DNA of 63,766 nt from an uncultured Verrucomicrobia subdivision 3 bacterium (GCA_903820285.1 CAIJGS010000008.1:1-63766), one strand, 5' to 3'; shown: positions 9,921 through 50,096, counted from the first letter of the stretch. Notes: a model not told the origin generated them from the letters alone. Numbers and translations are program-made.

Positions 9921-10069
9921 GGTGTAACATCCTTTGCCCCTGACATCCAGCGCATTACCTGCCCCAAATCAAATGCTTTTGGCCCTGGCTGCACTTTATC
10001 CCTCCTCCTTGGCGTCCGCTGAAAATTCGCATCGGCCCCGCCACCGCCGTCAGACTGTGCTTCCGTCGG

Positions 10070-26972: not shown

Positions 26973-29900
26973 TCATTTCCAAGTGAAACCGCCGCGGACG
27001 GTGTTGACGCTTCTGTCCGTGCCGGTGACGTCCATTTCAAATAGACCACCGGCGGCATTGGTAAATTGCAGTTGCAAATAATTCTGCCCTAGGTTGGTGC
27101 CAAGCGGTGAGGCGGCATTCAGCAGCAGAACCGCGCCCGCCGGACTCCACGCAGCGGCTGAATAACTGCCCGCGATAACCACTTGCGGACTCGCACCAGG
27201 GCCTGAAAAAGACTCCGTGTAATTCGTACCAGCCAAGGCATAAACGGAAGTCACCGGACTGCCCGTCGCCGTCAGGCGAAACGTGTGGCCAGACCAGGCC
27301 GCTGGTGCCAGATTGGCGGCTGTTTGGAAAATGACATCCACTCCGTAAGGATATATCTGCGAACGGTCAAAACTCGCATTATCTGGAGAAAAAAAGTACA
27401 CCTGCATATTTTGAACATTCACGCCAGCCATCAATACCGGGGCCTCATACTGAAAACTTAACTGCGCGGTTAGGGTAGAACTATAATAAGGTACCGGCGG
27501 ATTCAAATCATAGGTATAATAGCCCACCCCGGAATTATTCATCGCATTGGTGGAAAATTGCGTAAAGGTATTGGGGCCGAAGCTGAACCATACGGTGGTG
27601 CCGTCAGGCGATAGGCCCGAAGCATTTAAACCCGCCAGGGACGAGGGCACCTGGCCTAGGGAGAACTGCATGACACCACTCGTAACGCTGCCATATGGGT
27701 TAGAAACTACCACGCGATATTGCCCAAAATTGGTGATCGCGAATGGTTCTAAGCTAATGAATGAATTGGTCTGTCCCGGCAAAGGATGGCCATTCAACAA
27801 CCATTGAAAGGTCAGTGGCCCACTGCCGCTTCTTTGGAAAAATAGGAAGCCAGCACCCCCCAAGTAAACCGGCTGATTAGTAGTATAAGAAAGAATTACC
27901 GGCGGACCGGCCACGGTCAAGGCGGCCACGGTGCTGGTCACGCAGCCGTAATTATTGGATACCACGACAAAATAACCACCATTCATCAAGCCGCTGACCC
28001 CGGGGAAACTTAAAACCGGCCCGGTGGGTGATGAGATGGCGTTGGTAAAATAACCAGGATACTGAGGCGATCCAAATTCGGTGATAAAATACCAGATATA
28101 ACTCAAGGGACCCGTCCCGGTGGCATTTACTGAGATTGTCGCCGTTCGCCCGGCGTTTACAATGGTGTTTTGCGGCTGGGTCACGATGGCGGGCGCATAC
28201 GCCAGCGAGAGCAACGCCGGACTGCTGGTAATGCTCCCATACGGGCTGCTAACGATGACTCGATAATTGCCGGCATCACCGGTGCCGACCGAGGGCAACG
28301 ACAACAGAAAGGCATTCTGCCCGGAAAGACTTTTGCCGTTGAGTTGCCATTGATAAGCCAGCGGACCGTCGCCGACGGCACCAACGCTGAATAACACACT
28401 GCCACCCATCAAGGAAAATTGGCTGGCTGGCTGGCTGGTAATGGCAGGCAGCAGGTTTTCATCCGCCACCAGCATGAGGTTCGATTGCATCGCGAAGGAT
28501 AGCGTGGTTCGATTCGTGAGCAGGTTCAGGTTTTCATCCAGCCAACCGGAAAACACCCACCCAGCGGCGGGTACGGCGGTGACACTGTAATTTTTCCCGA
28601 GCTCCAGCCAGGCATTGGAGTAGTTGGGCGAGATGGTCCCCTGCCCGTTCACCAAAACCTGGAGCCGGTTGGTCACCACATAGTCCAGGGCCAGCGTATT
28701 GGTAAGCGATGCGTTACCGGCGGAGTCCTGCGCGAAGATTTGGAGCTGATTGGTGCCGGGAATGAGATTGAGCGCCGCCGACCAGTTGGTGAAACCCAGC
28801 GCATTCGTCCACCCGGTGTTGTTCAGTTGATATTGCACGTCCGCCACCTGCCAGTTATCACTCGCCCGGCCTTTGACGGTAAATACGCTGTTGCTCCACC
28901 GCTGGCCGCTGACCAGATTCGTCACGGTCAGGACCGGTCGGGTAACGTCCACGAAGTTGGCAGTCAAAACCAGATTGGAGGCCATGGTAAACGTCAGCGC
29001 CGGTTTGCTGCCGGTTACGCTGCCAGTCCAGTTGGTGAACACAAAACCAACGCCCGGTGTGGCCGTGATCGTGTAGGATTGCCCAACCGCCAGCAGGGCA
29101 TTGCTATAATTCGGCGAAATGGTGCCAAGCCCCGTGGTCAGCAATTGCAACGGTGCCGACACCACGTAGTTGATGATGGTGGAATTGGTCAGGGATGCAT
29201 TGCCAGTGGTATCCACGGCGTAGGCCTGAAAGGTGTTATTGCCGGGAATCAGCGTCACATTCGCCGACCAATTACTGGCACCGATGGCGGTATTCCAACC
29301 TGCGCCATTGATCTGGTATTGAACCCGGGCCAACTGCCAATTGTCGCTGGCCACGCCTTTGACGGTAAATACGCTGTTACTCACACGCTGACTGCTGACC
29401 AGATTCGTCACGGTCAAGCTGGGCCGGGTGACATCCACGAAGTTCGCAGTCAAAACCAGATTGGACGCCATGGTGAAGGTCAGCGCCGGCTTGCTGCCGG
29501 TCACACTGCCGGTCCAGTTGGCAAACGTAAAGCCGGCGGCTGGCATGGCCGTGATCGTGTAGGGCTGGCCCACCGCGAGGAGGGCATTGCCGTAGTTGGG
29601 AGAAATGGCACCGAGCCCCGTGGTCAGCAATTGCAATGGTGCTGATAGCACGTAGTTGATGGTGGTGGAATTGGTGTATGAATTGTTGCCGCCGGCATCC
29701 ACCGCATAAACCTGAATGGTATTGTTACCGGGGATCAGTGTCACATTGGCCGACCAGTTGTTGGTGCCCGTGGCGGTATTCCAGCCGGTACCGTTGACCT
29801 GATACTGAACGCTGACGACCTGCCAGTTGTCGCTGGCGGTGCCATGAAGGTTAAACACGCTATTGCTCCAGTGCTGACCGTTAACGGGGGCGGTAATCAC

Positions 29901-31328
29901 CACGGTCGGGCGTTGCACATCGGTGAAATTCGCCACCAGACCGGTGGTGGCTAGGATGCTTGTCAGGCTATTGGAAAACAACCACGTGGATGCCGGCAGC
30001 GCAAAAACGCAGCTGGTTTTATTGGTCAGCACCGCGCCCGGAATCACAATGGAATTGGATAAATAGCTAGGAGCGTCATTGGAGTCATATACTGTCGTCC
30101 TTACGACCGAAATATTAAGAAACTGCCAGTTGCTGAAGACAAAACCCGGCGCGGGGGCGGCGGTCATGGTGTAGTTTCGGCCCACCTCCAGCCAGGCATT
30201 GCTGTAATTGGGGGTAATGGTGCCAAGGCCTCGCGTCTGCAGAGTGAATTGATTGGTCACCACGCAATCCAACACCAGGCTGTTGGTGAGGGAAATGTTG
30301 CCGCTGTTATCCACGGCATAGGCGCTCAGGTAATTGGTACCGGGGCTCAGGCTCAGCGGCAGATTCCAGTTCGTAGCACCATTGGCCGGCATCCAATCGC
30401 CGCCATTCAGTTGCACCCACACATTGCTGATGGCCGGATTGGCCCCGGTGTGACCAGACAGCGTGAACAGGCTGTTGGTAATCCGCTGGCCGCTCACGAG
30501 ATTGGTGATGGTCAACGTCGGCCGGAAATTGGCGGTGAACGAGGCTCCCAGACTCATGGTGGTATTTAAACCCGGATTGGTCCCAATGACGGTGCCATCA
30601 CCGGAAGTCCAATTGGCAAACGCCGCGCCGGGCAATGGCACGGCGGTCAGGGCGATGGGCCCCGCAAGCGGCACCACTGAGCCATTTAAATTGGGTGTAA
30701 CCGTCCCCGCCCCATTCGTCATGACCGTGAGATGGTCCGAGGCCGCACAGTAAAAGCTGACCGAACTGGTGGCCGAAGCATTGCCGGCGGCATCCACGGC
30801 ATATGCCATCACGGCATAGGGTCGGACACTATTGAAGTTCAAGGGAAGAGGCCCGGTCATGTTGCTTTGCAATAGTTGGCAACTTTGGGCGTTGAAAACA
30901 GTACTCCACCGGAACCAGCCATTGGTGGCCGGCGTGGCCGCCACCCAACCCGATCCATTTAACTGACACCAAACCCCGGCGACCGCCAGATTGTCCGCCG
31001 CCACGCCGGAAACGGTGACGGCGGCATCGGCAGTGGCTTGCATGCCGGGTGTCGGGGTTGATGGTGAACCAGGAGGGGGGTTATCGCTGCCCGACAAAGC
31101 AAAGTCATGCGAGGCAATGTGCCGGCCGATTGTTGGCGGTGGCGAAGGGGGTAATCCAACATTATAAATTACGGGAATGTTCAGCACGGCATTTCGCGCG
31201 GGAGATGTGATGGACACCGTTGGCGGCACCTTATCTGCCGCCCAAGCGGGCTGGCTATGAAAAACGACTAATAACAGAGCCACCAGCCATGGCAAAGGGC
31301 AGCCAGACCATAGGTATTTGATTTTCAT
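26973..31328 (-). CDS. Giant secreted protein (about 1451 aa): Ig-like plus InlB-B-repeat-like (..F.NWTG..) modules, then immunoglobulin I-set-like domains
   Basis: ORF track gives 26973..31400. The signal peptide MKIKYLWSGCPLPWLVALLLVVFHSQPAWA starts at 31328. There are four about 162-aa tandem units (residues about 293-980), then PAITSQPASQ...GDAGNYRVIVSSPYGS type Ig domains. Confidence 0.8.
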   Translation of the reverse strand: MKIKYLWSGCPLPWLVALLLVVFHSQPAWAADKVPPTVSITSPARNAVLNIPVIYNVGLPPSPPPTIGRHIASHDFALSGSDNPPPGSPSTPTPGMQATADAAVTVSGVAADNLAVAGVWCQLNGSGWVAATPATNGWFRWSTVFNAQSCQLLQSNMTGPLPLNFNSVRPYAVMAYAVDAAGNASATSSVSFYCAASDHLTVMTNGAGTVTPNLNGSVVPLAGPIALTAVPLPGAAFANWTSGDGTVIGTNPGLNTTMSLGASFTANFRPTLTITNLVSGQRITNSLFTLSGHTGANPAISNVWVQLNGGDWMPANGATNWNLPLSLSPGTNYLSAYAVDNSGNISLTNSLVLDCVVTNQFTLQTRGLGTITPNYSNAWLEVGRNYTMTAAPAPGFVFSNWQFLNISVVRTTVYDSNDAPSYLSNSIVIPGAVLTNKTSCVFALPASTWLFSNSLTSILATTGLVANFTDVQRPTVVITAPVNGQHWSNSVFNLHGTASDNWQVVSVQYQVNGTGWNTATGTNNWSANVTLIPGNNTIQVYAVDAGGNNSYTNSTTINYVLSAPLQLLTTGLGAISPNYGNALLAVGQPYTITAMPAAGFTFANWTGSVTGSKPALTFTMASNLVLTANFVDVTRPSLTVTNLVSSQRVSNSVFTVKGVASDNWQLARVQYQINGAGWNTAIGASNWSANVTLIPGNNTFQAYAVDTTGNASLTNSTIINYVVSAPLQLLTTGLGTISPNYSNALLAVGQSYTITATPGVGFVFTNWTGSVTGSKPALTFTMASNLVLTANFVDVTRPVLTVTNLVSGQRWSNSVFTVKGRASDNWQVADVQYQLNNTGWTNALGFTNWSAALNLIPGTNQLQIFAQDSAGNASLTNTLALDYVVTNRLQVLVNGQGTISPNYSNAWLELGKNYSVTAVPAAGWVFSGWLDENLNLLTNRTTLSFAMQSNLMLVADENLLPAITSQPASQFSLMGGSVLFSVGAVGDGPLAYQWQLNGKSLSGQNAFLLSLPSVGTGDAGNYRVIVSSPYGSITSSPALLSLAYAPAIVTQPQNTIVNAGRTATISVNATGTGPLSYIWYFITEFGSPQYPGYFTNAISSPTGPVLSFPGVSGLMNGGYFVVVSNNYGCVTSTVAALTVAGPPVILSYTTNQPVYLGGAGFLFFQRSGSGPLTFQWLLNGHPLPGQTNSFISLEPFAITNFGQYRVVVSNPYGSVTSGVMQFSLGQVPSSLAGLNASGLSPDGTTVWFSFGPNTFTQFSTNAMNNSGVGYYTYDLNPPVPYYSSTLTAQLSFQYEAPVLMAGVNVQNMQVYFFSPDNASFDRSQIYPYGVDVIFQTAANLAPAAWSGHTFRLTATGSPVTSVYALAGTNYTESFSGPGASPQVVIAGSYSAAAWSPAGAVLLLNAASPLGTNLGQNYLQLQFTNAAGGLFEMDVTGTDRSVNTVRGGFTWK

Positions 31329-31592
31329 ATTATTAGCCTTTACGCCGAATGCAATGGCATCATTGCACATTGGCCCAACGGCTGTCAAAAAATAAAACAT
31401 TCAGATTGAGGCATTTCCAGCGTCGCCACAGCCAACAGAAATGGGAAGCCGCGTCCTGGTTTTAAATTTATGATTGCGGGATATTGCCCATCCACCGCTG
31501 CGGCCATTCGGCGTCAAAGTCCCCGCCTAATGGGGCGATTGCCGATTTAGGCTTCGGCTTGCCACATACAGCAACTGTGTTAGATTTCTTTT

Positions 31593-31802
31593 GTGAGCCA
31601 ATTCTTCCGTCCCAATATTCAGCGCAATGGGCGTATTGCCCGGGGCGTGATCGGCTCGCTATGCCTGGTAGCCGGCATCATCATTGCGGGAGATTATTCT
31701 CTGTGGGGACTGGTATTGGTGGCTGCCGGTATTTTCGCCATCTTTGAAGCCATGCGCGGCTGGTGTTTTGCCCGCGCCTGCGGGATTAAGACGAAGATCT
31801 AA
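31593..31802 (+). CDS. Small membrane protein, YgaP-like/DUF2892
   Basis: 69 aa with a GTG start. Two TM and C-terminal EAMRGWCFARACGIK (GWCP-like motif). Confidence 0.6.
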   Translation: MSQFFRPNIQRNGRIARGVIGSLCLVAGIIIAGDYSLWGLVLVAAGIFAIFEAMRGWCFARACGIKTKI

Positions 31803-31951: not shown

Positions 31952-32698
31952 TCAGGCAAAGGCACCAAACAGGGCGCGCAGTTCTTCATCCACCATGGAT
32001 TCATCGGCGAGGGTCTGGACAATTTCATCCCGCAATAGCACGCGATAGCGTTTCCGCAGGCGGTGGACGGCCACGCGGACGGCACCTTCCTCCATATCGA
32101 GCACCTTGGCGACTTCGCTTTGGGCGGACTCGGCTTTCCCGGCCATAAGAAAGGTCTTCAACTGTTCAAACACCTTCCCTTTGCCTTCGGCTTCGCATTC
32201 TTTTTGCAACCGCTCAATCACCTTGGCGAGCAATGCCAACGCCCACTCACGGTCGAAGGCTTTGTCGGGGCTGGGTTCGTTGGTGGCGGCGACCTGGAAT
32301 TTGGTATCGGCCGTTTCCCAGTCGAGGGAAAGCGGCAGTTCGCCGCCGCCGCGTTTCTGGCGCTGGGTCTTCTTCCATTCGTTTATAAGAAAGTGTTTCA
32401 GCGAGGCGAGGAGGAAGGCGCGGAACCGGCCGCGCTCGGCATCGAGGCCGGCGAGGTAGTTTTTCTCGAGAAAACGGGCGAAGAAGGCCTGTACAAGGTC
32501 CTCGGCATCCTCTTTGCCGTAGCCGCGACGGCGGACATAGGCATAGAGCGGATACCAGTAGGTGTGGCACAGTTCCTCCAGCGCAGCGGTGGATTGCGGA
32601 CCGGCGTGTTGACCGGCGGCGAGCACAACGGTCCAGCGCGTCGTGGCGAAAATATCGCCCGGCGTACTATTCGATGGAATGGAGGTCTGGCTATTCAA
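31952..32698 (-). CDS. ECF-like sigma-70 family factor (STK-associated type), copy 1
   Basis: 248 aa with a TTG start. TTRWTVVLAAGQ...CHTYWYPLYAYVRRRGY..DAEDLVQAFFARFLE (region 2) and C-terminal VAKVLDMEEGAVRVAVHRLRKRYR (region 4 HTH). Confidence 0.85.
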   Translation of the reverse strand: MNSQTSIPSNSTPGDIFATTRWTVVLAAGQHAGPQSTAALEELCHTYWYPLYAYVRRRGYGKEDAEDLVQAFFARFLEKNYLAGLDAERGRFRAFLLASLKHFLINEWKKTQRQKRGGGELPLSLDWETADTKFQVAATNEPSPDKAFDREWALALLAKVIERLQKECEAEGKGKVFEQLKTFLMAGKAESAQSEVAKVLDMEEGAVRVAVHRLRKRYRVLLRDEIVQTLADESMVDEELRALFGAFA

Positions 32699-32753
32699 TT
32701 CAGCGCGTTCATCCTAGCCGAGGCCGGGGTAAGTTGAAACACCGAATCTTAAT

Positions 32754-32779
32754 TTTGCGCCGGAGCGCGGTTTGTCACA
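32754..32779 (-). promoter_or_regulatory. Candidate ECF-type promoter upstream of sigma copy 1
   Basis: Minus-sense sequence is TGTGACAAA-N11-CGCAAA. It has the same 9+11+6 geometry as the motifs at 35818 and 36625 and lies about 55 nt before the TTG start. Confidence 0.3.
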
Positions 32780-32892
32780 AACCGCAGCGTTCTGCCAGTC
32801 CATGCAACGAGGAATCATTCGACGCCTGCCGTGTACGCGACCCGCTGCGAGTTGGGACAACTCGCGCTCCGGCTGGGTTCCGGATTGGACGG

Positions 32893-35808
32893 TTATTGGC
32901 CTTTTACGTCGCCGGGAGGATTGGTGGCATTGTCCGGTCCCACCAGTTCCAAATAACCCTGATAGACATCGCCCGGGCTGTTGGTGATGCAAAAGAGCAG
33001 GCGCGGTTCGCCGAGCACCACGTCGAAGGGCGCGAACTGGGGCGAACCCGGGCGATGGTAATGGTATGACGGCGGGACGTTCCCCCGAATGGCCTGCAAC
33101 CGGGTGCTGAAGCTGGCAGAATGGTTGGTTCTCACACGCAAAACCATTGGCTTGGCCCCGGGCATGGGCACCGGGTGACCGTACGGACTATTCGACGAGT
33201 CAGGTGCAATCACCAGAGCAGGAGGAGGCATTGGCAATCCGGTGGCCGGATCAATCATGGCAGGCGTTGCCGGCGGAAGCGGAACGGGCGTCAAATCGGC
33301 AGTCAAACGCAGACGGTTGGATTCGATGATGAGAACCTGCTGCTCTGGTGACAAGGTACTGGACAGGGCCGGCGGTGGGACTGGGGTGGTAGCTGGCGGC
33401 AAGCCCGTGAGCGGGTCGATAGCCGGTGGCAAAGCTGATGTCCGAGCGAGCTGAGCAGCCATGGACTGGCCGACGGCGGCGGTTTCTGGCGTCACCGGCA
33501 CCTGCCAGGCAATGTTGTCCTCATAAAATACCGCCCGCCGCCCCGGCTGGTAAGGCTGATACCAGGAACTGTTGTAATCATAGGGACCGGCCGGAGTATT
33601 AATACTCCCGCTGCCGCCGCTGGCGGTGGCGCGCAAGGCGTAGCCCGGCGGCACCTTGGCCGAAAAGCCGATCATGGGCGTATTGCCACCGCCGAACACG
33701 TTTTGAATCTGGACGGTGACTTTGATTTTACCGGTGGCATCTGGCGGCTGGGGCGTGACGTGCTTAAATTGGATATAGCCGGTCAGCGCGCCGCCCGCAT
33801 GATTGCGAACGCTAAAGACTTTCACGGGCGTGGCATCCCTCAGTTTGACCGGATGGCGGGTCAGGTTCGCCTCGATTTGCGTCTGGGCATCGGCGGCTTC
33901 GGCAGCACCAAAACCATCCTCTTCTTTGAACATCCAGGTAAATACCGAGGAGGTGCCTACCCCCCGCTCCGACCACGTGGTAAACAAACTGGAACCAAGA
34001 TTCACCGTTTGGCCGTCCAGGCCTTTCACGAGGGCCGAAAGTTTTTCATCGGAAGAAACCTTCGAATCGGTCCAGACATCCACGGAACGGGTGTCGGTGG
34101 TGGTGCCAACAATCTGGTTGGTGGCGCGGCAAAGGACGATGATTTTTTGCGGTCCGCCGGCCATCGCGGACCAATAGCTTCCGCTGATCAGAAAAATCAC
34201 CGCCGCCAGCACCAACGCCAATCCGCCGAAGGTGGCAACTGTGGACCGGCCATTCCGCTGGCTGGGCGAGGTGGCAGCGTCGCCCGGGCTGCGGGCAGCG
34301 CGTGATTGCAACCATTGCAGCCACACCGGCAAACCGCCGCCCAGAATGCATACAAACACCACCAACGCAGTGCTGATTGCACTGAGGTGTGTCAACAGGC
34401 CTTTGGCCCACGAAAGGAAGAATTGCACCGCCACCGGATCCTGCCCCATGGAATCGTACACGTGCGTGCCGGAGCCTTCGCCACCGAAGGCCATATAGCC
34501 GCTGGCCCAGCCACCGAGAGCGATGGGGGCAATGGCCCCGCCGCCAACGGCCAGCAGCAAGGCGAGGGCCAGTCCGCCGAAGGAAACCAGCCCCATGGCA
34601 AAACCGCCAAATGCAAAAACACCGGTCGCCATACCGCCCATGGCAAGCACGCCGGTGGCCATGCCGCCGATGGCCAGAACGCCTTGTGCGCGGCCACCAA
34701 TGGCAATGATGCCCTTGGCCACCCGCGAACGGCCGGTATGCAAATCAATGCCGGTAGCCACGTGAATGAGCGGCAGTCCAAACAGGGTCCGCTTGGATTT
34801 ATATTCGTAGCCTTGCAGATAGGCGTACCCGGGATATGGTGGCACCCCGGAACGGCCCGAACTGGTGATGGTTTCGACGCAGGTTTTGACTTCGCTGGCC
34901 TGCTGGAAGCGCAGCTCGGGACGCTGCTCCAAGGCACGCAGGACAACTTCGTCCAGACGGACGTCAATCTGAACCTTGCGTGATGGTGCCACTATTCGGC
35001 CGCCGGGAAGTTCGCCGGTGAGCATTTCGTAGAAGACGACGCCGAGGGAATAGATGTCGGCGCGGTTGTCCACGTGCTTGGGATCGGTCTTTTGCTCGGG
35101 GGCGCTGTAACTGGGCGTGCCCACGCCACCCTGGGTAAAGTCGGCCGGACCGGCAACCGTTGCGCTGGACTCGGGCGCTGTGCCCAGCATTTTGGCGATG
35201 CCGAAATCGGCGACTTTCACGCGGCCGGATTTGTCGAGCAGCAGGTTTTCCGGCTTGATGTCGCGGTGAACGATGCCGCGGTCGTGGGCGTATTGCAGGG
35301 CATCGCACAGGGCCGGGATAATGGCGAGGGCTTCCTCGGGTTTGAATTTCCGTTCGCGCAAGAGGTGGCGGAGGTTGACGCCGTCCACGAATTCCATGAG
35401 CAGGAAATAAAAGCCGCCGGCCTGGCCGAAATCGTAAATGGTGACGATGTTCGGATGATTCAGGGCGGCTAGGGCCTGCGCTTCGCGGACGAAGCGTTCG
35501 GCGAACTTGGGGTCGCGCACGCGTTCGGGCGCGAGGAGTTTCAGGGCAGCGAAGCGGTTCAGGGTTTTCTGGCGGGCCTTGTACACCACGCCCATGCCAC
35601 CCCGGCCAAGGCACTGGATGATTTCAAGCTGGGGAAAGTGCGGAGCGATCTGCTCGGGCGGCAGCGGCGGCTGCGCGGCGGCTTCATCGTCGGTAAAGAC
35701 GGTTTCGGTCCGGAGATTCAGGCCAATCAGACACGCGGGACAGAGACCGCCGGGAGCATGCTCCGGAAGCGGCTGACCGCAGTGTGGGCAAATGATTTGG
35801 TTGCTCAT
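32893..35808 (-). CDS. Hanks-type Ser/Thr kinase with N-terminal Cys4 ribbon, Gly-decapeptide membrane region and about 460-aa extracytoplasmic domain (STK1)
   Basis: 971 aa. CPHCGQPLP...GLCPACL; LGRGGMGVVYKA, HRDIKPEN, DFGIAK, SYSAPE. Residues about 366-446 are (A/M)xGGxAxGVx repeats. Confidence 0.9.
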   Translation of the reverse strand: MSNQIICPHCGQPLPEHAPGGLCPACLIGLNLRTETVFTDDEAAAQPPLPPEQIAPHFPQLEIIQCLGRGGMGVVYKARQKTLNRFAALKLLAPERVRDPKFAERFVREAQALAALNHPNIVTIYDFGQAGGFYFLLMEFVDGVNLRHLLRERKFKPEEALAIIPALCDALQYAHDRGIVHRDIKPENLLLDKSGRVKVADFGIAKMLGTAPESSATVAGPADFTQGGVGTPSYSAPEQKTDPKHVDNRADIYSLGVVFYEMLTGELPGGRIVAPSRKVQIDVRLDEVVLRALEQRPELRFQQASEVKTCVETITSSGRSGVPPYPGYAYLQGYEYKSKRTLFGLPLIHVATGIDLHTGRSRVAKGIIAIGGRAQGVLAIGGMATGVLAMGGMATGVFAFGGFAMGLVSFGGLALALLLAVGGGAIAPIALGGWASGYMAFGGEGSGTHVYDSMGQDPVAVQFFLSWAKGLLTHLSAISTALVVFVCILGGGLPVWLQWLQSRAARSPGDAATSPSQRNGRSTVATFGGLALVLAAVIFLISGSYWSAMAGGPQKIIVLCRATNQIVGTTTDTRSVDVWTDSKVSSDEKLSALVKGLDGQTVNLGSSLFTTWSERGVGTSSVFTWMFKEEDGFGAAEAADAQTQIEANLTRHPVKLRDATPVKVFSVRNHAGGALTGYIQFKHVTPQPPDATGKIKVTVQIQNVFGGGNTPMIGFSAKVPPGYALRATASGGSGSINTPAGPYDYNSSWYQPYQPGRRAVFYEDNIAWQVPVTPETAAVGQSMAAQLARTSALPPAIDPLTGLPPATTPVPPPALSSTLSPEQQVLIIESNRLRLTADLTPVPLPPATPAMIDPATGLPMPPPALVIAPDSSNSPYGHPVPMPGAKPMVLRVRTNHSASFSTRLQAIRGNVPPSYHYHRPGSPQFAPFDVVLGEPRLLFCITNSPGDVYQGYLELVGPDNATNPPGDVKGQ

Positions 35809-35817
35809 ACCCGTTAC

Positions 35818-35843
35818 TTAACGCCGGGCCAAAAATTGTTACA
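35818..35843 (-). promoter_or_regulatory. Candidate ECF-type promoter in the 50-nt sigma2-STK1 spacer
   Basis: Minus-sense sequence is TGTAACAAT-ttttggcccgg-CGTTAA, ending 9 nt before the STK1 ATG. Confidence 0.4.
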
Positions 35844-35858
35844 GGCCAGGCTCATGTT

Positions 35859-36602
35859 TTATTTCCGGGCCAGGACAGCGGCAAGGTAACGCAATTCGCC
35901 ATCGAGGTCCATATCGCCGGCCAGGGTCTGGGAAATTTCCTCGCGGAAGATGGCGCGGAACCGTTTACGCAACCGATGAACGGCTACACGGGCGGCACCC
36001 TCCCCTGCCCCGAGTTGGCGAGCGATGGCAGTGTAGTCCATGCCGCCGTGACCAGTGAGTAGCGTTTCCTTGAGGACGGCAAAATCGGCCCCTTTGCCCA
36101 AGGCGGTAAATTCGGATTCGAGGCGGTTAAGCGTCAGATCGAGCAAGGTCATGGCCCATTGGCGGTCGAAGGTCTCATCGGCGGCGAGAGCGATGGCGGC
36201 ATCGGCCGCATAGCGGGTTTCGGCCAGCTCGGTGTCGAACGGCAGATGCACCTGGCCGCCGCCCCGGCGCTGGGTGGTGGCGCGCCGCCATTCGTTGGCC
36301 ATGAAATGTTTCAGGGCGACAATCAGAAAGGTGCGGAGTTTGCCTTTGTCAGGATTGGCGGCATCAAGCCAGCGTTTCTCAAGGAGGCGGCAAAAAAATT
36401 CCTGGGTTAGATCCTGGGCATCGTGCGGCGACTGGCCGGCACGGCGGACATAGGCGTAGAGCGGATACCAGTAGGCATGGCAGATGGCCTCCAGCGCGGC
36501 GGAAGATTCGGGCGAGGGCCGCTGGCAGGCGGCGAGCACGACGGTCCACCGCGTGGGCGGGAAGGCCTGGGGCGCTATGCCGGATGTGCCGTGATGACTC
36601 AT
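35859..36602 (-). CDS. ECF-like sigma-70 family factor (STK-associated type), copy 2
   Basis: ORF track gives 35859..36671. The likely start is MSHHGTSGIAPQAFPPTRWTVVLAA (ATG at 36602). CHAYWYPLYAYVRRAGQSPHDAQDLTQEFFCRLLE; C-terminal GAARVAVHRLRKRFR. Confidence 0.85.
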   Translation of the reverse strand: MSHHGTSGIAPQAFPPTRWTVVLAACQRPSPESSAALEAICHAYWYPLYAYVRRAGQSPHDAQDLTQEFFCRLLEKRWLDAANPDKGKLRTFLIVALKHFMANEWRRATTQRRGGGQVHLPFDTELAETRYAADAAIALAADETFDRQWAMTLLDLTLNRLESEFTALGKGADFAVLKETLLTGHGGMDYTAIARQLGAGEGAARVAVHRLRKRFRAIFREEISQTLAGDMDLDGELRYLAAVLARK

Positions 36603-36624
36603 GCTGATTCCGTTCGCAGGTAGG

Positions 36625-36650
36625 TTAACGGAATCAGCGGGATTGTTACA
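36625..36650 (-). promoter_or_regulatory. Candidate ECF-type promoter upstream of sigma copy 2
   Basis: Minus-sense sequence is TGTAACAAT-cccgctgattc-CGTTAA. The 9-mer and 6-mer are identical to those at 35818-35843, with identical spacing. It ends 22 nt before the ATG. Confidence 0.4.
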
Positions 36651-36699
36651 GCCGGATGGAGGGATTGGCAATTTTCAAATGCCCTTTGCCCTCTTTACA

Positions 36700-37407
36700 T
36701 CACCACCATTGGTTGGCCGGATCAGGAATCATGTCACTGGCAGTTGTCACCGGAATGCTAAAAGTAGAGACATGGTTGTCGCCCCACAGCATGATCGCCA
36801 GACTTTTACCTCGATGGTTGTGCCAGACACTGCGCGGATCGGTATTGCCGCGGTTGGGGGCCCAGTTCCAATCGCCCTGAATGATTTTGGTGACCGGGTG
36901 GCGATCGATGACGGATTTTTTTAGGGACGGGAAATTCATTGGGTCGGCAGTGTTGCCGAACACATATTGGACCCCGAAACCCGCCGGGACCCATAGTGGC
37001 ATATAGCTGGTTCCAAACGCATCCCAGCAATTTGTGCCCGGCGAAGTGGGGTGGGCAACATAGTTGTCACCTTTGTCGGCCGGACATTTACTAACTTTGT
37101 AAACGCCACCCAAAATGGCATTGAGAGCCCGGTTGGTCGCCGCCACAAACATATCATAACTGCCATCCTGTCCGCTCAGCCCGTTCCAGCTCGGCAACAA
37201 CGGCAAAGTGTCGGCGTTGTCCATGACATATACCTCCAGGGCAACTCCGATCTGTCGCTGGCTGGAGAGACATTGTGCCCGCAAGGCGACCGACTTCGCG
37301 CTGCTCAGCGCCGGCAGCAAGAGTGCCGCCAAAATGGCAATAATGGCGATCACCACCAGCAACTCGATCAGTGTGAACGCTGCTACTGCGTTGATATTAT
37401 CCTTCAT
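36700..37407 (-). CDS. Prepilin-type N-terminal cleavage/methylation protein (DUF1559-like, degenerate H-X9-DG)
   Basis: ORF track gives 36700..37425. [38 protein letters not shown]. The C-terminus is [20 protein letters not shown] (GD instead of DG). Confidence 0.8.
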
Positions 37408-37657
37408 ATCCGCCAGATAAAGCATCGGCTAGAAAAGACGGCGGTTGGCAGCGGCAATTTAAATGCGAACCTCATAACCATCCAGGCCGACAATCAACAA
37501 AAAACTGTGCCTAGTCCAAAGCGTTTTTTGGGGTCATCGCTCTTCATGTATTCGGTTGTAGTCCTTATTTTCCAGCGTGTCCATATGAATTTGACCCATA
37601 AGGATTGCTTGATGAATCCGGAAAACCCATCAGTCGGCGCGCGGGGTTTTGGCCGGA

Positions 37658-40588
37658 CTATTTGCCTCGGCGAATGGAGATGGCGCCGTTCACGGTATTG
37701 GCTTTGAACTGGGCACCGCCGCCATTAAGCGTGCCGTTCAACTTGTGGCCGACGGGGCCATCTTTTTTGGGTGCCAGAGCGGGGAATTCGCTGGTAATGC
37801 GACCGTTCACGCTGTTGGCGGTAACGTCGACGCTGGCATCGGCGGGGAGGGAGGTTTCGATGCGTCCGCTGACATTGTCCAGCGAAACGTTTTGCCCGTC
37901 ATCCAGAGTGGCAAAATCTGCAATAAGCCGGCCGTTGACATTGGAAAGGTTCAGGCTGCCGGCAACGCCGCTGGCCTTGATTTCGCCGTTCACATTGGAG
38001 GCATGGATGTCGCCAGCTACCCCGTCAATGGAGGTGCGACCGTTCACGTTGGAAATGCTGTCCAGCCGGGCGTGACGCGGCACCTGGATGACATAGTCGG
38101 CACTGGGAGAACCATCACCGTGAAACCGCAGCCAGCCGATGAACCCGCCATACTCTTCGGCAATATGCGGGGGATGAATGACCACCTCGTTGGTGGCGGA
38201 GCGGACATCAAAATTGTAGGAATTCACCAGGTCTGGGTCCCTGCCATGCACGGTGGCTTTCAGAACGACTTCATTTTTGTCGGTGCCGGTGATTTCGATG
38301 CGGCCGTTGACATTATCAATGCTGAAGCGGCCGTCGGGAGCGAGCGGGAGGGTCATGGTGATATCCCGCTCGGCTTCGCCCTGAGAGCTGCTGGCGAAAA
38401 CGTGCGGCACGGTAAACATGCGGACCGCCATAAAGACCAGCACCACCACCAGAATCAGCATGACAATAAATGCGATCAGAAAGCCGATCAGGATTTTGCC
38501 AGGTCCCCAACCGACGCTGTGGGGTATGGCCCCGGGGGTGGCCGGTGGGCGGGCGGTGGACGGGCTGACGGTGGGACGAGGGGCCGGGCCGGCGGCAAAC
38601 CATGATTGCACATCCGAGCGGCCCAGGATGATCAGCGCCCAGATGCCAACGCCCAAGCCCAGCAGGCTACAGGACAGGATGGACAGGATCCCCGCCGCGA
38701 TGCCCCAACTATGGCTGCGGAGCCGGAACATCTGATAACCGCCATAGAGGACCAGCAGAGCAGGCACCAAACGGAATAATACGAACCCGATGCCGGTCAC
38801 CATGCCGCCAAACATCCAGCCAAATCCCAGAATGGCAGCCAGCCAGCCGGGGACGGCCATGAACATCATGAGGGCTAAGGGAATGGATATCAGCTTGAGT
38901 CCCGCAACGATCATGAGACCGACGGCCGGGGCCATGATCATGGGCGGAGCGGCAGATCCGGCGACACCGGCAGCAACAGGCGGCGGCCGGGAAATCGGCG
39001 GCGGATTCATCCCACCGGCGGCAACCGGCCGGGCCACCACTGGCGAGGGATGCAGCCAGTGGCGAAGTTTTTTGCCCTTCCCATCAGTGAATTCCTGGCA
39101 GAGGATCAGAATCCAATCTGTCACCGTCCAGATTCCGAAACCGCCGAGGGTGAACAAATGGAGAAAACCGGTGCCAATTTTACCGACATAGAACCGGTGG
39201 GCGCCAAACAATCCGAAAAAGGTGGCCAGCAGGAACGCGGGCAGGATGATTTTTTCACTCGTAACGGTGGCGCTGGTGTCAGCCACATTGGCCGGATGAT
39301 ACCAGTTGCGCAGTTTCTTGCCCCGGACATCGGTGAATTCCTTGCACAGGATGATGATCCAGTCGATGACCGTCCAGATGCCGAAACCGCCAAATGTAAA
39401 TAATTGCAGCAGGCCCGTGGCAATTTTGCCGACGTAAAACCGGTGCACGCCAAACACCCCGAAAAAGAAGGCAAGCAGGAAGGCGGGCAGGATGATTTTT
39501 TCGCTGGTGTCCGGATGGCCGGTAGTAGCCACCACCGGCGGGACCGGGCCGGGACCGCCGGGGGTGCCGCTGATGGTCTCCACGTCATCCTTGATCTGGC
39601 TGGCCTGGGAATAGCGGCGGTTAGGATTTTTTTCGAGGGCGCGCAGGACGACCTCATCAAGGCGGACATCCACCTGGACTTTCTTGGACGGAGCTTCAAT
39701 GCGTTTGCCGGGTAGTTCGCCGGTGAGCATCTGGTAAAAGACCACGCCGAGGGCGTAGATATCCGCGCGGTGATCCACCTCGCCCGGGGCCTTGATCTGC
39801 TCGGGCGACATGTACTGCGGCGTGCCCATGATCTTTCCGGACTCGGTAAATTCAGAGGTGCCGAGACCCGCGGTGCCAGCAGCGGCGGATTCATCCTCGC
39901 CCGACACGAGCTTGGCGAGTCCGAAGTCGGCGACTTTTACGCGGCCACGGCGGTCGAGCAGGATGTTCTCAGGTTTGATGTCGCGATGCACGATGCCCTG
40001 ATCGTGGGCGTATTGGAGGGCATCGCAAATCTGCGGGACAATGGCGAGAGCTTCGCGGGTGGAAATGCGGCCGCCATTGAGCAACTGGCGCAGGTTCACG
40101 CCATCCACATATTCCATGAGAATGAAATACAGGCGGGCGTCCTCGGGAGCCGGCGGCACGGCGGCGGGCCGCTGCACCGAGCCGAATTCGAAGAGGGTCA
40201 CTATGCCAGGATGGCTGAGGCGCGCGAGCGCCTTGGCTTCGCGGGTGAAGCGACTGGAAAAGGCCGCCGTATCGCCAATGCCGGGTGGGAGAATTTTGAG
40301 GGCAACCACGCGGTCGAGCTCTTTCTGCCGGGCCTTGTAAACGGCCCCCATACCGCCCTTGCCGATGAGCTCGATGATTTCCAATTGGGGGAAAAGCGGG
40401 GCAAGTTCGGCCACAGTGGGTGGCTGGAACGGCGGGGCGGGCGGCTGGCTGACGGTGTCGGCCGCCGCGCCGGCTTGGAGCAGGCAGACGGGGCAGAGTC
40501 CGACGAGCATGCCGTCAGGCAGGGGCGTCCCACATTGCGGGCAATGGCTGGGTTCGGGCATTGGCGGAGTCATTTTTACCGTGTCCAT
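37658..40588 (-). CDS. Hanks-type Ser/Thr kinase with N-terminal Cys4 ribbon, two tandem TM2 domains, further TM segments and C-terminal DUF4097-like beta-helix (STK2)
   Basis: 976 aa. CPQCGTPLP...GLCPVCL; IGKGGMGAVYKA, HRDIKPEN, DFGLAK, YMSPE. Two copies of KIILPAFLLAxFFGxFGxHRFYVGKIxTGxLxLFTxGGFGIWTVxDWIxILC. The C-terminus has VNGRIEITG/VNGRTSIDG/VNGEIKASG/VNGRLIADF/VSGRIETSL/VNGRITSEF repeats. Confidence 0.9.
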   Translation of the reverse strand: MDTVKMTPPMPEPSHCPQCGTPLPDGMLVGLCPVCLLQAGAAADTVSQPPAPPFQPPTVAELAPLFPQLEIIELIGKGGMGAVYKARQKELDRVVALKILPPGIGDTAAFSSRFTREAKALARLSHPGIVTLFEFGSVQRPAAVPPAPEDARLYFILMEYVDGVNLRQLLNGGRISTREALAIVPQICDALQYAHDQGIVHRDIKPENILLDRRGRVKVADFGLAKLVSGEDESAAAGTAGLGTSEFTESGKIMGTPQYMSPEQIKAPGEVDHRADIYALGVVFYQMLTGELPGKRIEAPSKKVQVDVRLDEVVLRALEKNPNRRYSQASQIKDDVETISGTPGGPGPVPPVVATTGHPDTSEKIILPAFLLAFFFGVFGVHRFYVGKIATGLLQLFTFGGFGIWTVIDWIIILCKEFTDVRGKKLRNWYHPANVADTSATVTSEKIILPAFLLATFFGLFGAHRFYVGKIGTGFLHLFTLGGFGIWTVTDWILILCQEFTDGKGKKLRHWLHPSPVVARPVAAGGMNPPPISRPPPVAAGVAGSAAPPMIMAPAVGLMIVAGLKLISIPLALMMFMAVPGWLAAILGFGWMFGGMVTGIGFVLFRLVPALLVLYGGYQMFRLRSHSWGIAAGILSILSCSLLGLGVGIWALIILGRSDVQSWFAAGPAPRPTVSPSTARPPATPGAIPHSVGWGPGKILIGFLIAFIVMLILVVVLVFMAVRMFTVPHVFASSSQGEAERDITMTLPLAPDGRFSIDNVNGRIEITGTDKNEVVLKATVHGRDPDLVNSYNFDVRSATNEVVIHPPHIAEEYGGFIGWLRFHGDGSPSADYVIQVPRHARLDSISNVNGRTSIDGVAGDIHASNVNGEIKASGVAGSLNLSNVNGRLIADFATLDDGQNVSLDNVSGRIETSLPADASVDVTANSVNGRITSEFPALAPKKDGPVGHKLNGTLNGGGAQFKANTVNGAISIRRGK

Positions 40589-40969
40589 GGCTACACCAGA
40601 AGCAAAACCGGCAAAATGTTACAAAAAAGTGTTCAGCGGGAACAATATGGTCAACGAACGAATCGCACGAACCAACATAAAACCTCGCTGGCACGACTTG
40701 CGGCAGGGAGACAATTGCAATCTCACGGAAATTAGCAGCAAACCAGATTCGGCAAATATATTTGCCGTTCTTTTGGTTACAAAAGAACAATGTTGCAAAA
40801 AGCACGGATTGCTCTTGGCAAAGTCTAGGGATTAAAGGAAGTTCGGAGGGTGGCAGGAGTGCAAAGATATGTGACCTTTGGTTTTAGACGGGAACGTTTT
40901 TTTAATACTGTTGGAAATCCGCTTCAGCCAGAAGACAATTTAAGTGAATCAAAAAATATAGACACGCCA

Positions 40970-41695
40970 ATGAAAATACCTGCCTTCATTCTTGCCTGTG
41001 CTGTGCTGGTTGCAGTCTCAATGCCGGGGCTTTCGCAAGGTTTCTATAATTTGGATTTTGAATCAGCCAAGATCTTTTCTCTCGTTGGCAACCCATATTA
41101 TCCTTACGGCATAACAACCTCAAATGCTTTACCCGGGTGGAACGTTACCGGTTATGGCTATACTGATCTAGTAACCTCCATTACTTATAACGCCCCTGCC
41201 TTGGGCTCCAGTTGGGTAAATCTTTGGGCAACCAATGGCCAGCAGATCAGTGGGAAATATAGCGTCCTATTGCAGGGTGGAATTGGCACCGGAGCTTCCA
41301 TCAGTCAAATTGCGACGCTGCCACTCTCTGCATATTCGATTCTGTTTGAGGCGCAGCCAGGATACGGGCTGTTGGAACTTTCTTTGGGAGGTCAAATCCT
41401 TCCTTTTTCACCCGTTGGGAATGGCTCCAATTACACCTTGTATGGAGCAAACATTCCATCGGCCATGTATGGCCAAACTGAACAGTTGATGTTCTCGGCC
41501 ATTGGCTATAATGGCGGCGGTGGAGTCAATAACTGGAACATAGACAATATTCAGTTTTCCTCTTCAACCGTCCCGGAGCCGGGCGTTTGGGGACTGGCCG
41601 GCTTGGGGGCTCTGGCGATTGGCTTGCGCCGGCGGCAATGGGATGGCACTCAAAAGATGAGAACACACCGCCTCAGAGCGATGTCAACCCATTGA
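40970..41695 (+). CDS. PEP-CTERM sorting-domain secreted protein
   Basis: ORF track gives 40850..41695. The signal peptide MKIPAFILACAVLVAVSMPGLSQG starts at 40970. VPEPGVWGLAGLGALAIGLRRRQ lies near the C-terminus, followed by an 18-aa extension. Confidence 0.8.
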   Translation: MKIPAFILACAVLVAVSMPGLSQGFYNLDFESAKIFSLVGNPYYPYGITTSNALPGWNVTGYGYTDLVTSITYNAPALGSSWVNLWATNGQQISGKYSVLLQGGIGTGASISQIATLPLSAYSILFEAQPGYGLLELSLGGQILPFSPVGNGSNYTLYGANIPSAMYGQTEQLMFSAIGYNGGGGVNNWNIDNIQFSSSTVPEPGVWGLAGLGALAIGLRRRQWDGTQKMRTHRLRAMSTH

Positions 41696-48656: not shown

Positions 48657-50003
48657 CTACTGGGTCATGGCCCGATAGAAGCGATGGGAGTTGGTGGCTA
48701 CGTCCGTGAACTGGTTGGTGCCGGTGGTGAACACGAGATTGGTTAATACAAACCAGGCCGGCGGCAGATTGGTGGAGAATTGAATCTGGACAGTGGGGGC
48801 CGCCGTGCCGGTAACGGTGGCTTGGAAAATGTGATTGGAGACGGACAGGTTCCGTAACATTAGCGCAGCGGGCAGCGTCAGTTTGAAGACGGTGCCATCG
48901 TCAAAAGTTCCGCCGTAGTAGGTGGTGCCGTAAAGATTTCCATCATTCCCCATGACCACCCCGGCTTTCGGATAGGCTCCATTGGTGGTAGAAAAACTGG
49001 CCAGCAAGGTAATCACCCCGCTAGTCGTAACTTTAAAGACAGTGCCGGAACCATCGTTGGTGCCCCCCAAAAAAGTGCTGCCATAGAAAGCACCGTCACC
49101 GCTGGGAATCAAGGCGCCAACCGGATACTCACCATTATTGCCGTTGAAACTGGCCAGCGTGGTCAATACGCCGTTGGTGGTGGTCTTAAAAACCATGCCC
49201 AGGTTGTTGCTGCCGCCAAACTCGGTGGTCCCATAAAAAAAACCGTCACTGCCCAACGCAAGTCCGGCATTGGGATAATTCCCATTGGTACCGCCAAAAT
49301 AAAATAACGGCGTCAGCACACCATTGGTGGTCACCTTGAAGATGGTGCCATACCCGTTACCGCTATTCAGATTGGTGCGCCCACCATACGGAGTAACACC
49401 GTAAAACGCGCCGTCGTTGCCGCGGGCCAGCAAGGCATTGGGAAAGGCGCCGTTGCCATTGGTAAAACTGGTGAGGGTGAATAAGGCACCCCCGGTGGTC
49501 AATTTACAGACCGTACCGTAGCCATTACCAGCGATTCCGCGTGAAGTGGTGGAATACAGGCTGCCATCGTTGCCGAACTGCCAATCCGCCTGCGGGGAAG
49601 TGCCGTTGGTGCCGCCGAAGCTGGCCAGCAAGGTCAGGGTGCCATTGGTGGTCACCTGAAAAGCCGTGCCGTACCCATTGGCGCCCCCCGAATTGGCGGT
49701 ACCATACAAAATACCATTGGTCCCCTGGGCCAGGCCGGCGTCCGGACTAATGCCGGTCGCGCCATTCAATGCCGCTAGAGTCGTCACACTGCCACTGGGG
49801 GAAACTTTGAACACGATGCCGTCGCCATTGGTTCCGCCGTTTACGGTCGTGCCATACAGCGAACCATCCTTGCCCAGCACCAGCCGACCGAGGGGATTGG
49901 CGCCGTTGGTATTGTTGAAATGACAGAGGGTCGTAAGCACGGGCTGAGCCGTGGCGGTGAGGGCCAGCAGGGTGGCGCCAAAGATCGTTGCCAGCAATTT
50001 CAT
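48657..50003 (-). CDS. Secreted Gloeo_Verruco (GloVer) repeat protein
   Basis: ORF track gives 48657..50063. The signal peptide MKLLATIFGATLLALTATAQ starts at 50003. About 9 units of G.LYGTT..GG..G.GTVFK(V/L)T..G. The C-terminus is VQIQFSTNLPPAWFVL...HRFYRAMTQ. Confidence 0.8.
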   Translation of the reverse strand: MKLLATIFGATLLALTATAQPVLTTLCHFNNTNGANPLGRLVLGKDGSLYGTTVNGGTNGDGIVFKVSPSGSVTTLAALNGATGISPDAGLAQGTNGILYGTANSGGANGYGTAFQVTTNGTLTLLASFGGTNGTSPQADWQFGNDGSLYSTTSRGIAGNGYGTVCKLTTGGALFTLTSFTNGNGAFPNALLARGNDGAFYGVTPYGGRTNLNSGNGYGTIFKVTTNGVLTPLFYFGGTNGNYPNAGLALGSDGFFYGTTEFGGSNNLGMVFKTTTNGVLTTLASFNGNNGEYPVGALIPSGDGAFYGSTFLGGTNDGSGTVFKVTTSGVITLLASFSTTNGAYPKAGVVMGNDGNLYGTTYYGGTFDDGTVFKLTLPAALMLRNLSVSNHIFQATVTGTAAPTVQIQFSTNLPPAWFVLTNLVFTTGTNQFTDVATNSHRFYRAMTQ

Positions 50004-50096
50004 GTTGTTACGAATTACCCGAAATAAAGTGATGTTACCGGAGATGGAATCGCATAATTTCACATCAAGTCAAGGTTCAATCGGCACCGGGCAAAA

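Follow-up and report, generated by a model that had tools for sequence, protein, structure and literature searches.

To our knowledge, sigma factors of the extracytoplasmic function (ECF) type that are controlled by kinases are poorly studied, and only two such pairs have been characterized, both of them in group ECF43. Phosphorylation of a sigma factor directly by the kinase encoded next to it has been described for EcfP/PknT of Vibrio parahaemolyticus and for EcfK/PknS of Xanthomonas citri (PMC8999054, PMC13147305). Region 2.2 lacks the DAED motif in all ECF43 members (EcfP has STTA instead), and phosphorylation makes up for the lost charge (PMC8999054). More broadly, kinase-associated ECF groups without anti-sigma genes are a recognized class, including ECF43, ECF59 to ECF62, ECF217, ECF267, and ECF283 (PMC7826278); several of the planctomycetal kinase-associated groups keep a DAED-like motif (PMC8999054), and kinase-regulated ECFs that bear N-terminal extensions are described as one clade (PMC7671368). 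Here, we analyzed an island of five genes, encoding two Ser/Thr kinases (STK1 and STK2), two ECF-type sigma factors (sigma1 and sigma2), and a pilin-like protein, in a 63,766-nt stretch of DNA (the window) from an uncultured soil bacterium of Verrucomicrobia subdivision 3 (GCA_903820285.1, CAIJGS010000008.1:1-63766).

With a probability of about 70%, we read this island as two distinct, ancient Ser/Thr kinase/ECF-type sigma modules of Verrucomicrobiota that are now interleaved. As in the ECF43 pairs EcfP/PknT and EcfK/PknS, an anti-sigma gene is lacking, and each sigma factor is encoded beside a Hanks kinase that spans the membrane and whose extracytoplasmic sensor varies. The mainly planctomycetal groups ECF59, ECF61, ECF62, and ECF217 (PMC7826278) share with it the Planctomycetes-Verrucomicrobia-Chlamydiae (PVC) superphylum, the kinase neighbor, and the lack of an anti-sigma gene. 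Unlike in ECF43, however, region 2.2 is acidic (DAED in sigma1 and DAQD in sigma2), the conserved Ser/Thr residues lie in an N-terminal F-x-T-T-x-W-T motif and at T229, and in one of the two modules (module A) the kinase gene comes first. By gene neighborhood (an adjacent Hanks kinase, no anti-sigma gene) the locus would therefore pass for ECF43, but by region 2.2 it does not. A preliminary description of this DNA had assigned it to the recognized class with ECF43 as the point of comparison; the first part stands, as the sigma factors are of the ECF type, have Hanks kinases next to them, and come without an anti-sigma gene, and the second does not, since the DAED-type motif is kept. The locus is predicted to work like the kinase-associated ECF class, probably with a phospho-switch other than that of ECF43.

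Descriptively, what is new is a kinase-sigma1 operon found across Verrucomicrobiota, its near-invariant promoter-like motif, a doubled sigma2-kinase promoter, and the nested arrangement of the two modules. In the papers on kinase-associated ECFs that we could read, we found no description of this Verrucomicrobiota-wide operon or its motif, nor of the doubled promoter or the Cys4 ribbon of the kinases. From the comparison come well-defined cognate pairs, as well as candidates for promoters and for phospho-acceptor residues, for a very widespread Verrucomicrobiota operon, and Luteolibacter pohnpeiensis KCTC 22041 (locus L078) is a cultured carrier.

Gene order and pairing of kinases with sigma factors

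A check of open reading frames (ORFs) within the window returned five island genes, all on the minus strand and positioned as previously described:

Positions 37658 to 40588, minus strand: STK2, 976 aa, with Cys4 ribbon, Hanks kinase domain, two TM2 domains, more membrane helices, and a C-terminal DUF4097.
Positions 36700 to 37425 (alternative ATG at 37407), minus strand: prepilin-type gene, 241 aa, with N_methyl motif.
Positions 36684 to 37657, minus strand: strain-specific insertion consisting of the prepilin-type gene and its upstream spacer.
Positions 35859 to 36602 (ATG), minus strand: sigma2, ECF-type sigma factor, 247 aa, with Sigma70_r2.
Positions 32893 to 35808, minus strand: STK1, 971 aa, with Cys4 ribbon, Hanks kinase domain, Gly decapeptide membrane array, two more hydrophobic segments, and a 426-aa extracytoplasmic all-beta domain.
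Positions 31952 to 32698, minus strand: sigma1, ECF-type sigma factor, 248 aa, with a TTG start.

The mechanical ORF of sigma2 begins at a TTG (36671), and the STK2 start at ATG 40588 is backed by an MDTVK N terminus conserved among orthologs. Sigma1 stands 4.9 kb from STK2; the sigma2-STK1 gap is 50 nt and the STK1/sigma1 spacer is 194 nt. Within the island, we detected neither an anti-sigma domain (Pfam) nor any further ORF, in agreement with the earlier statement that no anti-sigma gene is present.

The pairing of these genes emerged from their relatives. Scanning the sigma alignment against one genome per species gave 80 loci (L-numbers below denote retrieved loci of relatives), spanning Limisphaerales, Pedosphaera, Chthoniobacteraceae, Luteolibacter, Akkermansiaceae, and other Verrucomicrobiota. 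Sigma1 has more than 8,000 database homologs, many of them about 80% identical across Verrucomicrobiota. Of the 57 loci with more than 3.5 kb of upstream DNA, 55 have a co-oriented ribbon-bearing kinase gene upstream of the sigma1 ortholog, its stop codon often abutting the sigma1-ortholog start, and the N-terminal regions of these kinases are 59 to 78% identical to that of STK2, compared with 50 to 64% for STK1. The orthologs of sigma2 (68 to 74% identity) have the opposite organization: in every such locus with DNA (L085 to L093), a kinase gene lies downstream, starting 49 to 51 nt after the sigma2-ortholog stop, and its product is 76 to 83% identical to the N-terminal region of STK1 and 54 to 57% identical to that of STK2. 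A neighbor-joining tree of 65 kinase N-terminal regions gave the same picture, with STK2 nested in the clade encoded upstream of sigma1 and STK1 grouping with the kinases of the "sigma2 then kinase" order.

Orthology and the promoter-like motifs described below both assign STK2 to sigma1 and STK1 to sigma2, a pairing that is nested rather than tandem. Ancestrally, then, kinase A was followed by sigma1 in one unit and sigma2 by kinase B in the other; in the window, unit B lies inside unit A, with sigma1 displaced from its ancestral partner, STK2. The preliminary description had instead seen a duplicated island with the pairs STK2/sigma2 and STK1/sigma1. The two sigma factors, like the two kinases, fall in different ortholog groups, each found widely in Verrucomicrobiota; the pairs are old, separately conserved units and not the product of a recent duplication.

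Adjacency of the two modules is rare among the loci seen, being found only in the window, L093, and contig 9YJeErdc, where it is nested, and in L066, where it is tandem (kinase A, sigma1, a sigma2-like gene, kinase B). Module A was not found at the remaining sigma2-module loci whose flanking sequence reaches at least 10 kb (L085 to L087 and L089). In L048, another kinase gene has sigma genes on either side. As a side observation, five records labeled "uncultured Bifidobacteriaceae/Bifidobacterium" (L015, L025, L036, L056, and L064) carry the typically verrucomicrobial kinase-sigma1 operon, and their labels are probably wrong.

The two kinases share 49% identity over only their N-terminal approximately 340 aa, comprising the Cys4 ribbon and the kinase domain, and the remainder cannot be aligned, as expected from the earlier view that their membrane and extracytoplasmic parts are unrelated. 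Both have Pkinase matches (165 and 172 bits; Pfam) with the catalytic motifs ALK, HRDIKPEN, DFG, and SPE/APE intact, as is characteristic of Hanks-type kinases, and the ribbon and canonical Hanks domain reported for both are thereby confirmed. The ribbon reads CPxCG-x12-CPxCL, and its four cysteines are kept in 59 of the 65 family members in the tree. Examined as a possible zinc anti-sigma (ZAS) domain, the kinase N terminus has no HxxxCxxC and no Pfam anti-sigma match.

Beyond the kinase domain, STK1 contains five consecutive perfect A-x-G-x4-G-G-x decapeptides (residues 364 to 413), with degenerate units up to residue 444; this array and the two TM2 domains plus DUF4097 of STK2 (Pfam) were correctly recognized before. 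Pkinase is the only Pfam domain in STK1, and its sensor region has no Pfam match at E ≤ 1. The 426-aa C-terminal domain has 13 detectable homologs and is modeled by AlphaFold2 as tandem beta-sandwiches with a predicted local distance difference test (pLDDT) score of about 90 over the first 215 residues. A PDB fold search with this model returned generic Fab-like beta-sandwich matches only (best E, 4e-3; TM, 0.12 to 0.20), and we dropped the fold assignment. The sensors of module-A kinases vary by species and include DUF4019, a transglutaminase core, TPR plus Big_5, Wzz/GNVR, a SecDF P1 head, and Golvesin_C; in the window, the module-A sensor is the TM2 plus DUF4097 of STK2.

Sigma1 and sigma2 are 49% identical over 232 aa, an alignment that bears out the previously noted common stretch RWTVVLAA...YWYPLYAYVRR. 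Both match Sigma70_r2 at 30 to 34 bits (33.7 bits for sigma2; cutoff, 24), and TIGR02937 scores 47.6 bits in sigma1 and, below the cutoff of 42.9, 37.5 bits in sigma2. Matches to region 4 and Sigma70_ECF (Pfam/NCBIfam) are weak in both. Region 4 aligns with that of Mycobacterium tuberculosis SigE; with sigma2 and sigma4 domains only, both proteins have the domain composition of ECF (group 4) sigma factors, and region 4.2 is nearly identical between the two. A profile alignment with the same SigE places the DAED and DAQD motifs in region 2.2; in a 91-member sigma alignment, D64, A65, and D67 are kept in at least 99% of members and E66 is kept in 91%. Ser/Thr is kept at 90% or more in that alignment only at positions 19, 20, and 23, which are part of an N-terminal F-x-T-T-x-W-T-V-V extension, and at T229, making T19, T20, T23, and T229 candidate phospho-acceptors. 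When the sigma profile was searched against PDB sequences, only weak SigE matches (E, 2e-3) came up, of use solely for the DAED alignment, and an AlphaFold2 model of sigma1 built on a 12-sequence alignment (pLDDT, 54) was too poor for the N-terminal extension or the linker to be read.

Promoter-like motifs

Each module is preceded by its own type of promoter-like motif. The copies in the window are as follows:

Positions 40598 to 40622, minus strand: sigma1-type motif GTAACATTTTGCCGGTTTTGCTTCT, ending 9 nt before the STK2 ATG.
Positions 36625 to 36649, minus strand: sigma2-type motif, copy 1, GTAACAATCCCGCTGATTCCGTTAA, ending 22 nt before the sigma2 ATG.
Positions 35818 to 35842, minus strand: sigma2-type motif, copy 2, GTAACAATTTTTGGCCCGGCGTTAA, in the 50-nt sigma2/STK1 gap, ending 9 nt before the STK1 ATG.
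Positions 50015 to 50038, minus strand: third sigma2-type motif, GTAACA-N13-GGGTAA, outside the island, ending 12 nt before an ATG at 50002.

The sigma1-type consensus, GTAAC(A/G)-N13-GCTTCT with a conserved CCGG(A/T)TTT at the end of the spacer, is near invariant; about 52 of 58 module-A loci have it 7 to 37 nt ahead of the start of the kinase gene. Searching the window with a weight matrix derived from 54 of these sites gave a single hit, with a score of 43.2, and shuffled sequences gave none. For the sigma2 type, TGTAACAA-N12-CGTTAA occurs in exactly two copies in the 64-kb window (chance expectation, 0.02 to 0.08), in line with the earlier observation of a promoter-like motif shared within the island. 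Both copies are kept in place in L085, L087/L088, L089, and L093 (consensus, GTAACAA-N12-SGKTAA), and L090 keeps the motif upstream of sigma2. In distant sigma-then-kinase paralog pairs (L080, L048, L078, and L066), one -35-like element is likewise repeated before the sigma gene and in the approximately 50-nt gap. The short distance between sigma2 and STK1 had been recorded before as unexplained; the 50-nt figure is right, but the distance does have an explanation, since the conserved 49- to 51-nt spacer holds the second sigma2-type motif.

The two motif types have a common -35 element and differ in the -10 element, and the shared -35 fits the near identity of region 4.2 in the two sigma factors. 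Target promoters of ECFs have AAC at -35 and CGT at -10 and are usually autoregulated (PMC8103513, PMC7826278). The -35 "AAC" of both types and the -10 "CGT" of the sigma2 type match this hallmark, and by analogy we infer that the motifs are autoregulated promoters that would yield near-leaderless kinase mRNAs. The layout of the island is thus P-STK2, pilin, P-sigma2-P-STK1, sigma1, where P denotes a promoter-like motif.

The third sigma2-type motif, with spacing one base shorter than that of the island copies, precedes a minus-strand gene (48657 to 50002) for a secreted protein with G-x-LYGTT...GTVFK repeats resembling Gloeo_Verruco repeats. This gene is a possible candidate member of a sigma2 regulon.

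No conserved promoter was found upstream of sigma1 in the window. We rejected one candidate, TGTGACAA-N12-CGCAAA at about 32779, which is not conserved in L093 and scores below the threshold, and TGTAACA sequences upstream of a Kelch gene (44269) and at 9923 have no matching -10 element and were taken as chance occurrences. Elsewhere, a sigma1-type motif lies upstream of sigma1 itself in L010 (111 nt; position 243), L009 (152 nt; position 9849), and L018 (about 540 nt; position 1167). The copy in L009 is a second one, the kinase with its own copy lying 1.9 kb from sigma1, and the contigs of L010 and L018 are too short to show any kinase. A different sequence, TCCATCCGTG(G/A)TTAAA, is repeated about 20 to 40 nt upstream of sigma1 in L006, L012, L024, L027, L030, and L041, where the kinase gene does not abut sigma1, and could be another promoter or repeat element.

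Proposed mechanism and alternatives

Gene content, orthology, pairing, the conserved motifs, and the nonconservation of the pilin gene are direct observations, and the mechanism that they most likely reflect is one of two parallel envelope sensors with kinase-dependent sigma activation and positive feedback. In module A, a GTAACA-N13-GCTTCT promoter would drive STK2 and, ancestrally, an operon of promoter, membrane kinase, and sigma1; in module B, organized as P-sigma2-P-STK1, one promoter-like motif type would serve both genes. Each kinase would sense an extracytoplasmic signal via its lineage-variable sensor (TM2 plus DUF4097 in STK2 and the tandem beta-sandwich in STK1) and activate its cognate sigma factor by phosphorylation, and the active sigma factor would then transcribe its own module from its own promoter. 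Kinase-dependent activation is probably akin to that of the ECF43 pairs, but the phospho-switch itself probably differs from that of EcfP/ECF43, because the acidic region-2.2 motif is retained. Predicted intrinsic terminators show no excess (16 sites versus 11.5 ± 3.4 in shuffled sequence), with none convincing between island genes. As no terminators are evident there, read-through transcription could couple the two modules.

Several points weigh against this scheme. Phosphorylation, promoter function, and autoregulation rest on inference; the sigma1-type -10 element (GCTTCT) does not carry the CGT hallmark; and the 13 nt between GTAACA and the -10 hexamer are shorter than in classic ECF promoters. 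The intact acidic region 2.2 might allow the sigma factors to bind core polymerase without phosphorylation. Further, sigma1 of L093 has neither an STK2-type kinase nor a sigma1-type motif nearby, and STK1 may have taken over sigma1 in this clade.

That last point leads to an unlikely alternative, in which the circuit has been rewired so that STK1 controls both sigma factors, sigma1 depends for its expression on read-through that starts at the sigma2-type promoters, and STK2 either is a remnant or provides an extra input. The sigma2-STK1-sigma1 triple occurs in three close relatives, including L093 without STK2 or a nearby sigma1-type motif, a kinase between two sigma genes recurs in L048, and the sigma1 gene of the window has no conserved upstream promoter, all of which would fit such rewiring. 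However, both STK2 and the promoter motif before it are intact, the motif scoring as functional-looking sites typically do, and the L093 contig is only 12 kb long, so STK2 may sit elsewhere in that genome.

Somewhat more doubtful is a fused, cross-activating circuit produced by the nesting and, separately, a phospho-switch of these DAED-retaining sigma factors at their conserved N-terminal F-x-T-T-x-W-T extension. In the fused circuit, transcription from the sigma1-type promoter would take in STK2 and, through read-through, also sigma2, STK1, and sigma1, and the sigma2-type promoters would serve sigma2, STK1, and sigma1. If true, phospho-switching at this extension would be a mode of sigma control not previously described.

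We regard as improbable a third possibility, that the kinase acts as an anti-sigma-like membrane tether whose Cys4 ribbon sequesters the sigma factor until a signal releases it, phosphorylation not being the switch. The wide retention of the ribbon cysteines, an acidic region 2.2 with which the sigma factor should bind core polymerase, and the lack of a separate anti-sigma gene in the island would suit a tether, but the ribbon is of the CxxC...CxxC and not the HxxxCxxC form, it has no Pfam anti-sigma match, and the intact catalytic motifs of both kinases argue that kinase activity matters. Finally, mere co-location, in which the kinases have other substrates and simply share operons with the sigma genes, is very hard to credit: the kinase-sigma interaction is a predicted one here, but adjacency in 55 of 57 loci across several orders, despite free sensor swapping, is typical of cognate partners.

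The pilin-like gene and the surroundings of the island

Prepilin-type (DUF1559/H-X9-DG) proteins are massively expanded in PVC bacteria, and the pilin-like protein of the island resembles them in its N-terminal cleavage/methylation motif and its size of about 240 aa. It matches PF07963 (25.8 bits; cutoff, 21.2) and TIGR02532 (24 bits; cutoff, 16.3), as expected of a prepilin, and has one hydrophobic segment (residues 9 to 48); the N-methylation motif is its sole domain match, the pilin body having none in Pfam at E ≤ 1. Unlike those proteins, it does not match the H-X9-DG model (no NCBIfam match at E ≤ 0.01) and its gene context is not conserved; the H-X9-DG-like label given to it earlier has to be dropped, as the sequence reads H-x10-GDNH.

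A metagenome scan for pilin homologs gave 80 loci with relatives 35 to 89% identical, 33 of them at least 6 kb long, and in none of the 80 was a sigma or kinase gene found flanking the homolog. Even copies 83 to 86% identical have unrelated neighbors (DsbH-type thioredoxin, DUF3592, MoxR/DUF58, and MetA-pathway genes). The closest relatives of the island also do without the gene. Contig 9YJeErdc (sigma2, 96% identical), known from its gene table only, reads HI0933, a 273-aa gene, STK2 (TM2, DUF4097), a 440-nt spacer, sigma2, STK1, sigma1, and YgaP, with no pilin gene in the table. L093 (sigma1, 95%; sigma2, 92%) reads SecDF, TerC, RecJ, sigma2, STK1, sigma1, and YgaP, and neither STK2 nor the pilin gene is present on this 12-kb contig. 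In L090 (sigma2, 96%), homology to the window begins at 36683, 17 nt past the pilin stop, and the sequence further upstream is unrelated. The five-gene order is confined to same-species contigs, namely, L001, L002, and JlkbtaZg (gene table only); by the synteny check that the preliminary description itself had proposed, the order fails beyond the species level.

Because it is missing in the closest relatives and never lies near a sigma or kinase gene in the loci of its homologs, the most fitting reading of the pilin-like gene is that of a passenger, drawn from a mobile and highly expanded gene family, that landed here by chance. Module B lies between STK2 and sigma1 in this lineage, and in this species the pilin gene has come in as well, at the STK2/sigma2 junction. 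The five-gene arrangement is a lineage-specific accident and should not be taken for a functional unit with the pilin gene. This leaves hardly any room for the earlier proposal of a tandem duplicated island (STK2/sigma2 and STK1/sigma1) acting as an envelope sensor with two inputs and with the pseudopilin among its outputs: all five genes run in the same direction and no convincing intrinsic terminator separates them, so that co-transcription of the pilin gene from the STK2 promoter is possible, but orthology and motifs pair the genes otherwise, neither a sigma1- nor a sigma2-type motif precedes the pilin gene, it is absent from the two closest relatives and unlinked to sigma or kinase genes in its homologs' loci, and synteny largely refutes the proposal.

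Elsewhere, too, the kinase/sigma1 junction holds other genes, encoding secreted proteins of 137 to 978 aa or a helix-turn-helix protein. One of these, a secreted protein of 137 to 148 aa (MK...IDNFAPVVVKTVPEAGSKDV...), lies between kinase and sigma1 in L011, L034, and L036 and, judged by shared coding sequence, is also present in L019, L025, L028, L042, L043, L045, and L067; the window lacks it. This small protein could be a third component that recurs in module A. An approximately 70-nt palindromic element, TGTAGGAGACGAGGTGACGAGTCTC...GAGACTCCTCACGTCGTCTCCTACA, is found just upstream of sigma1 in the kinase-sigma1 spacer of L005, L008, L010, L013, and L037 and looks like a miniature inverted-repeat transposable element or a repetitive extragenic palindromic element.

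Strains also differ in gene content right beside the island. A PEP-CTERM gene (40850 to 41695, plus strand) lies between STK2 and the gene for an HI0933 flavoprotein in the window and is absent from the same-species loci L001 and L002, in which only about 130 nt separate STK2 from the flavoprotein gene. Downstream of sigma1, a giant surface protein with Ig/InlB-B repeats (26973 to 31400, minus strand) has 1,356, 1,475, and 1,606 aa among strains and is missing in a relative with a 96%-identical sigma2, in which YgaP, a 179-aa gene, and enolase come after sigma1. A gene for a YgaP-like (DUF2892-type) membrane protein of 69 aa (31593 to 31802, plus strand) converges on sigma1 and is kept in all close relatives (L001, L003, L004, L093, and 9YJeErdc).

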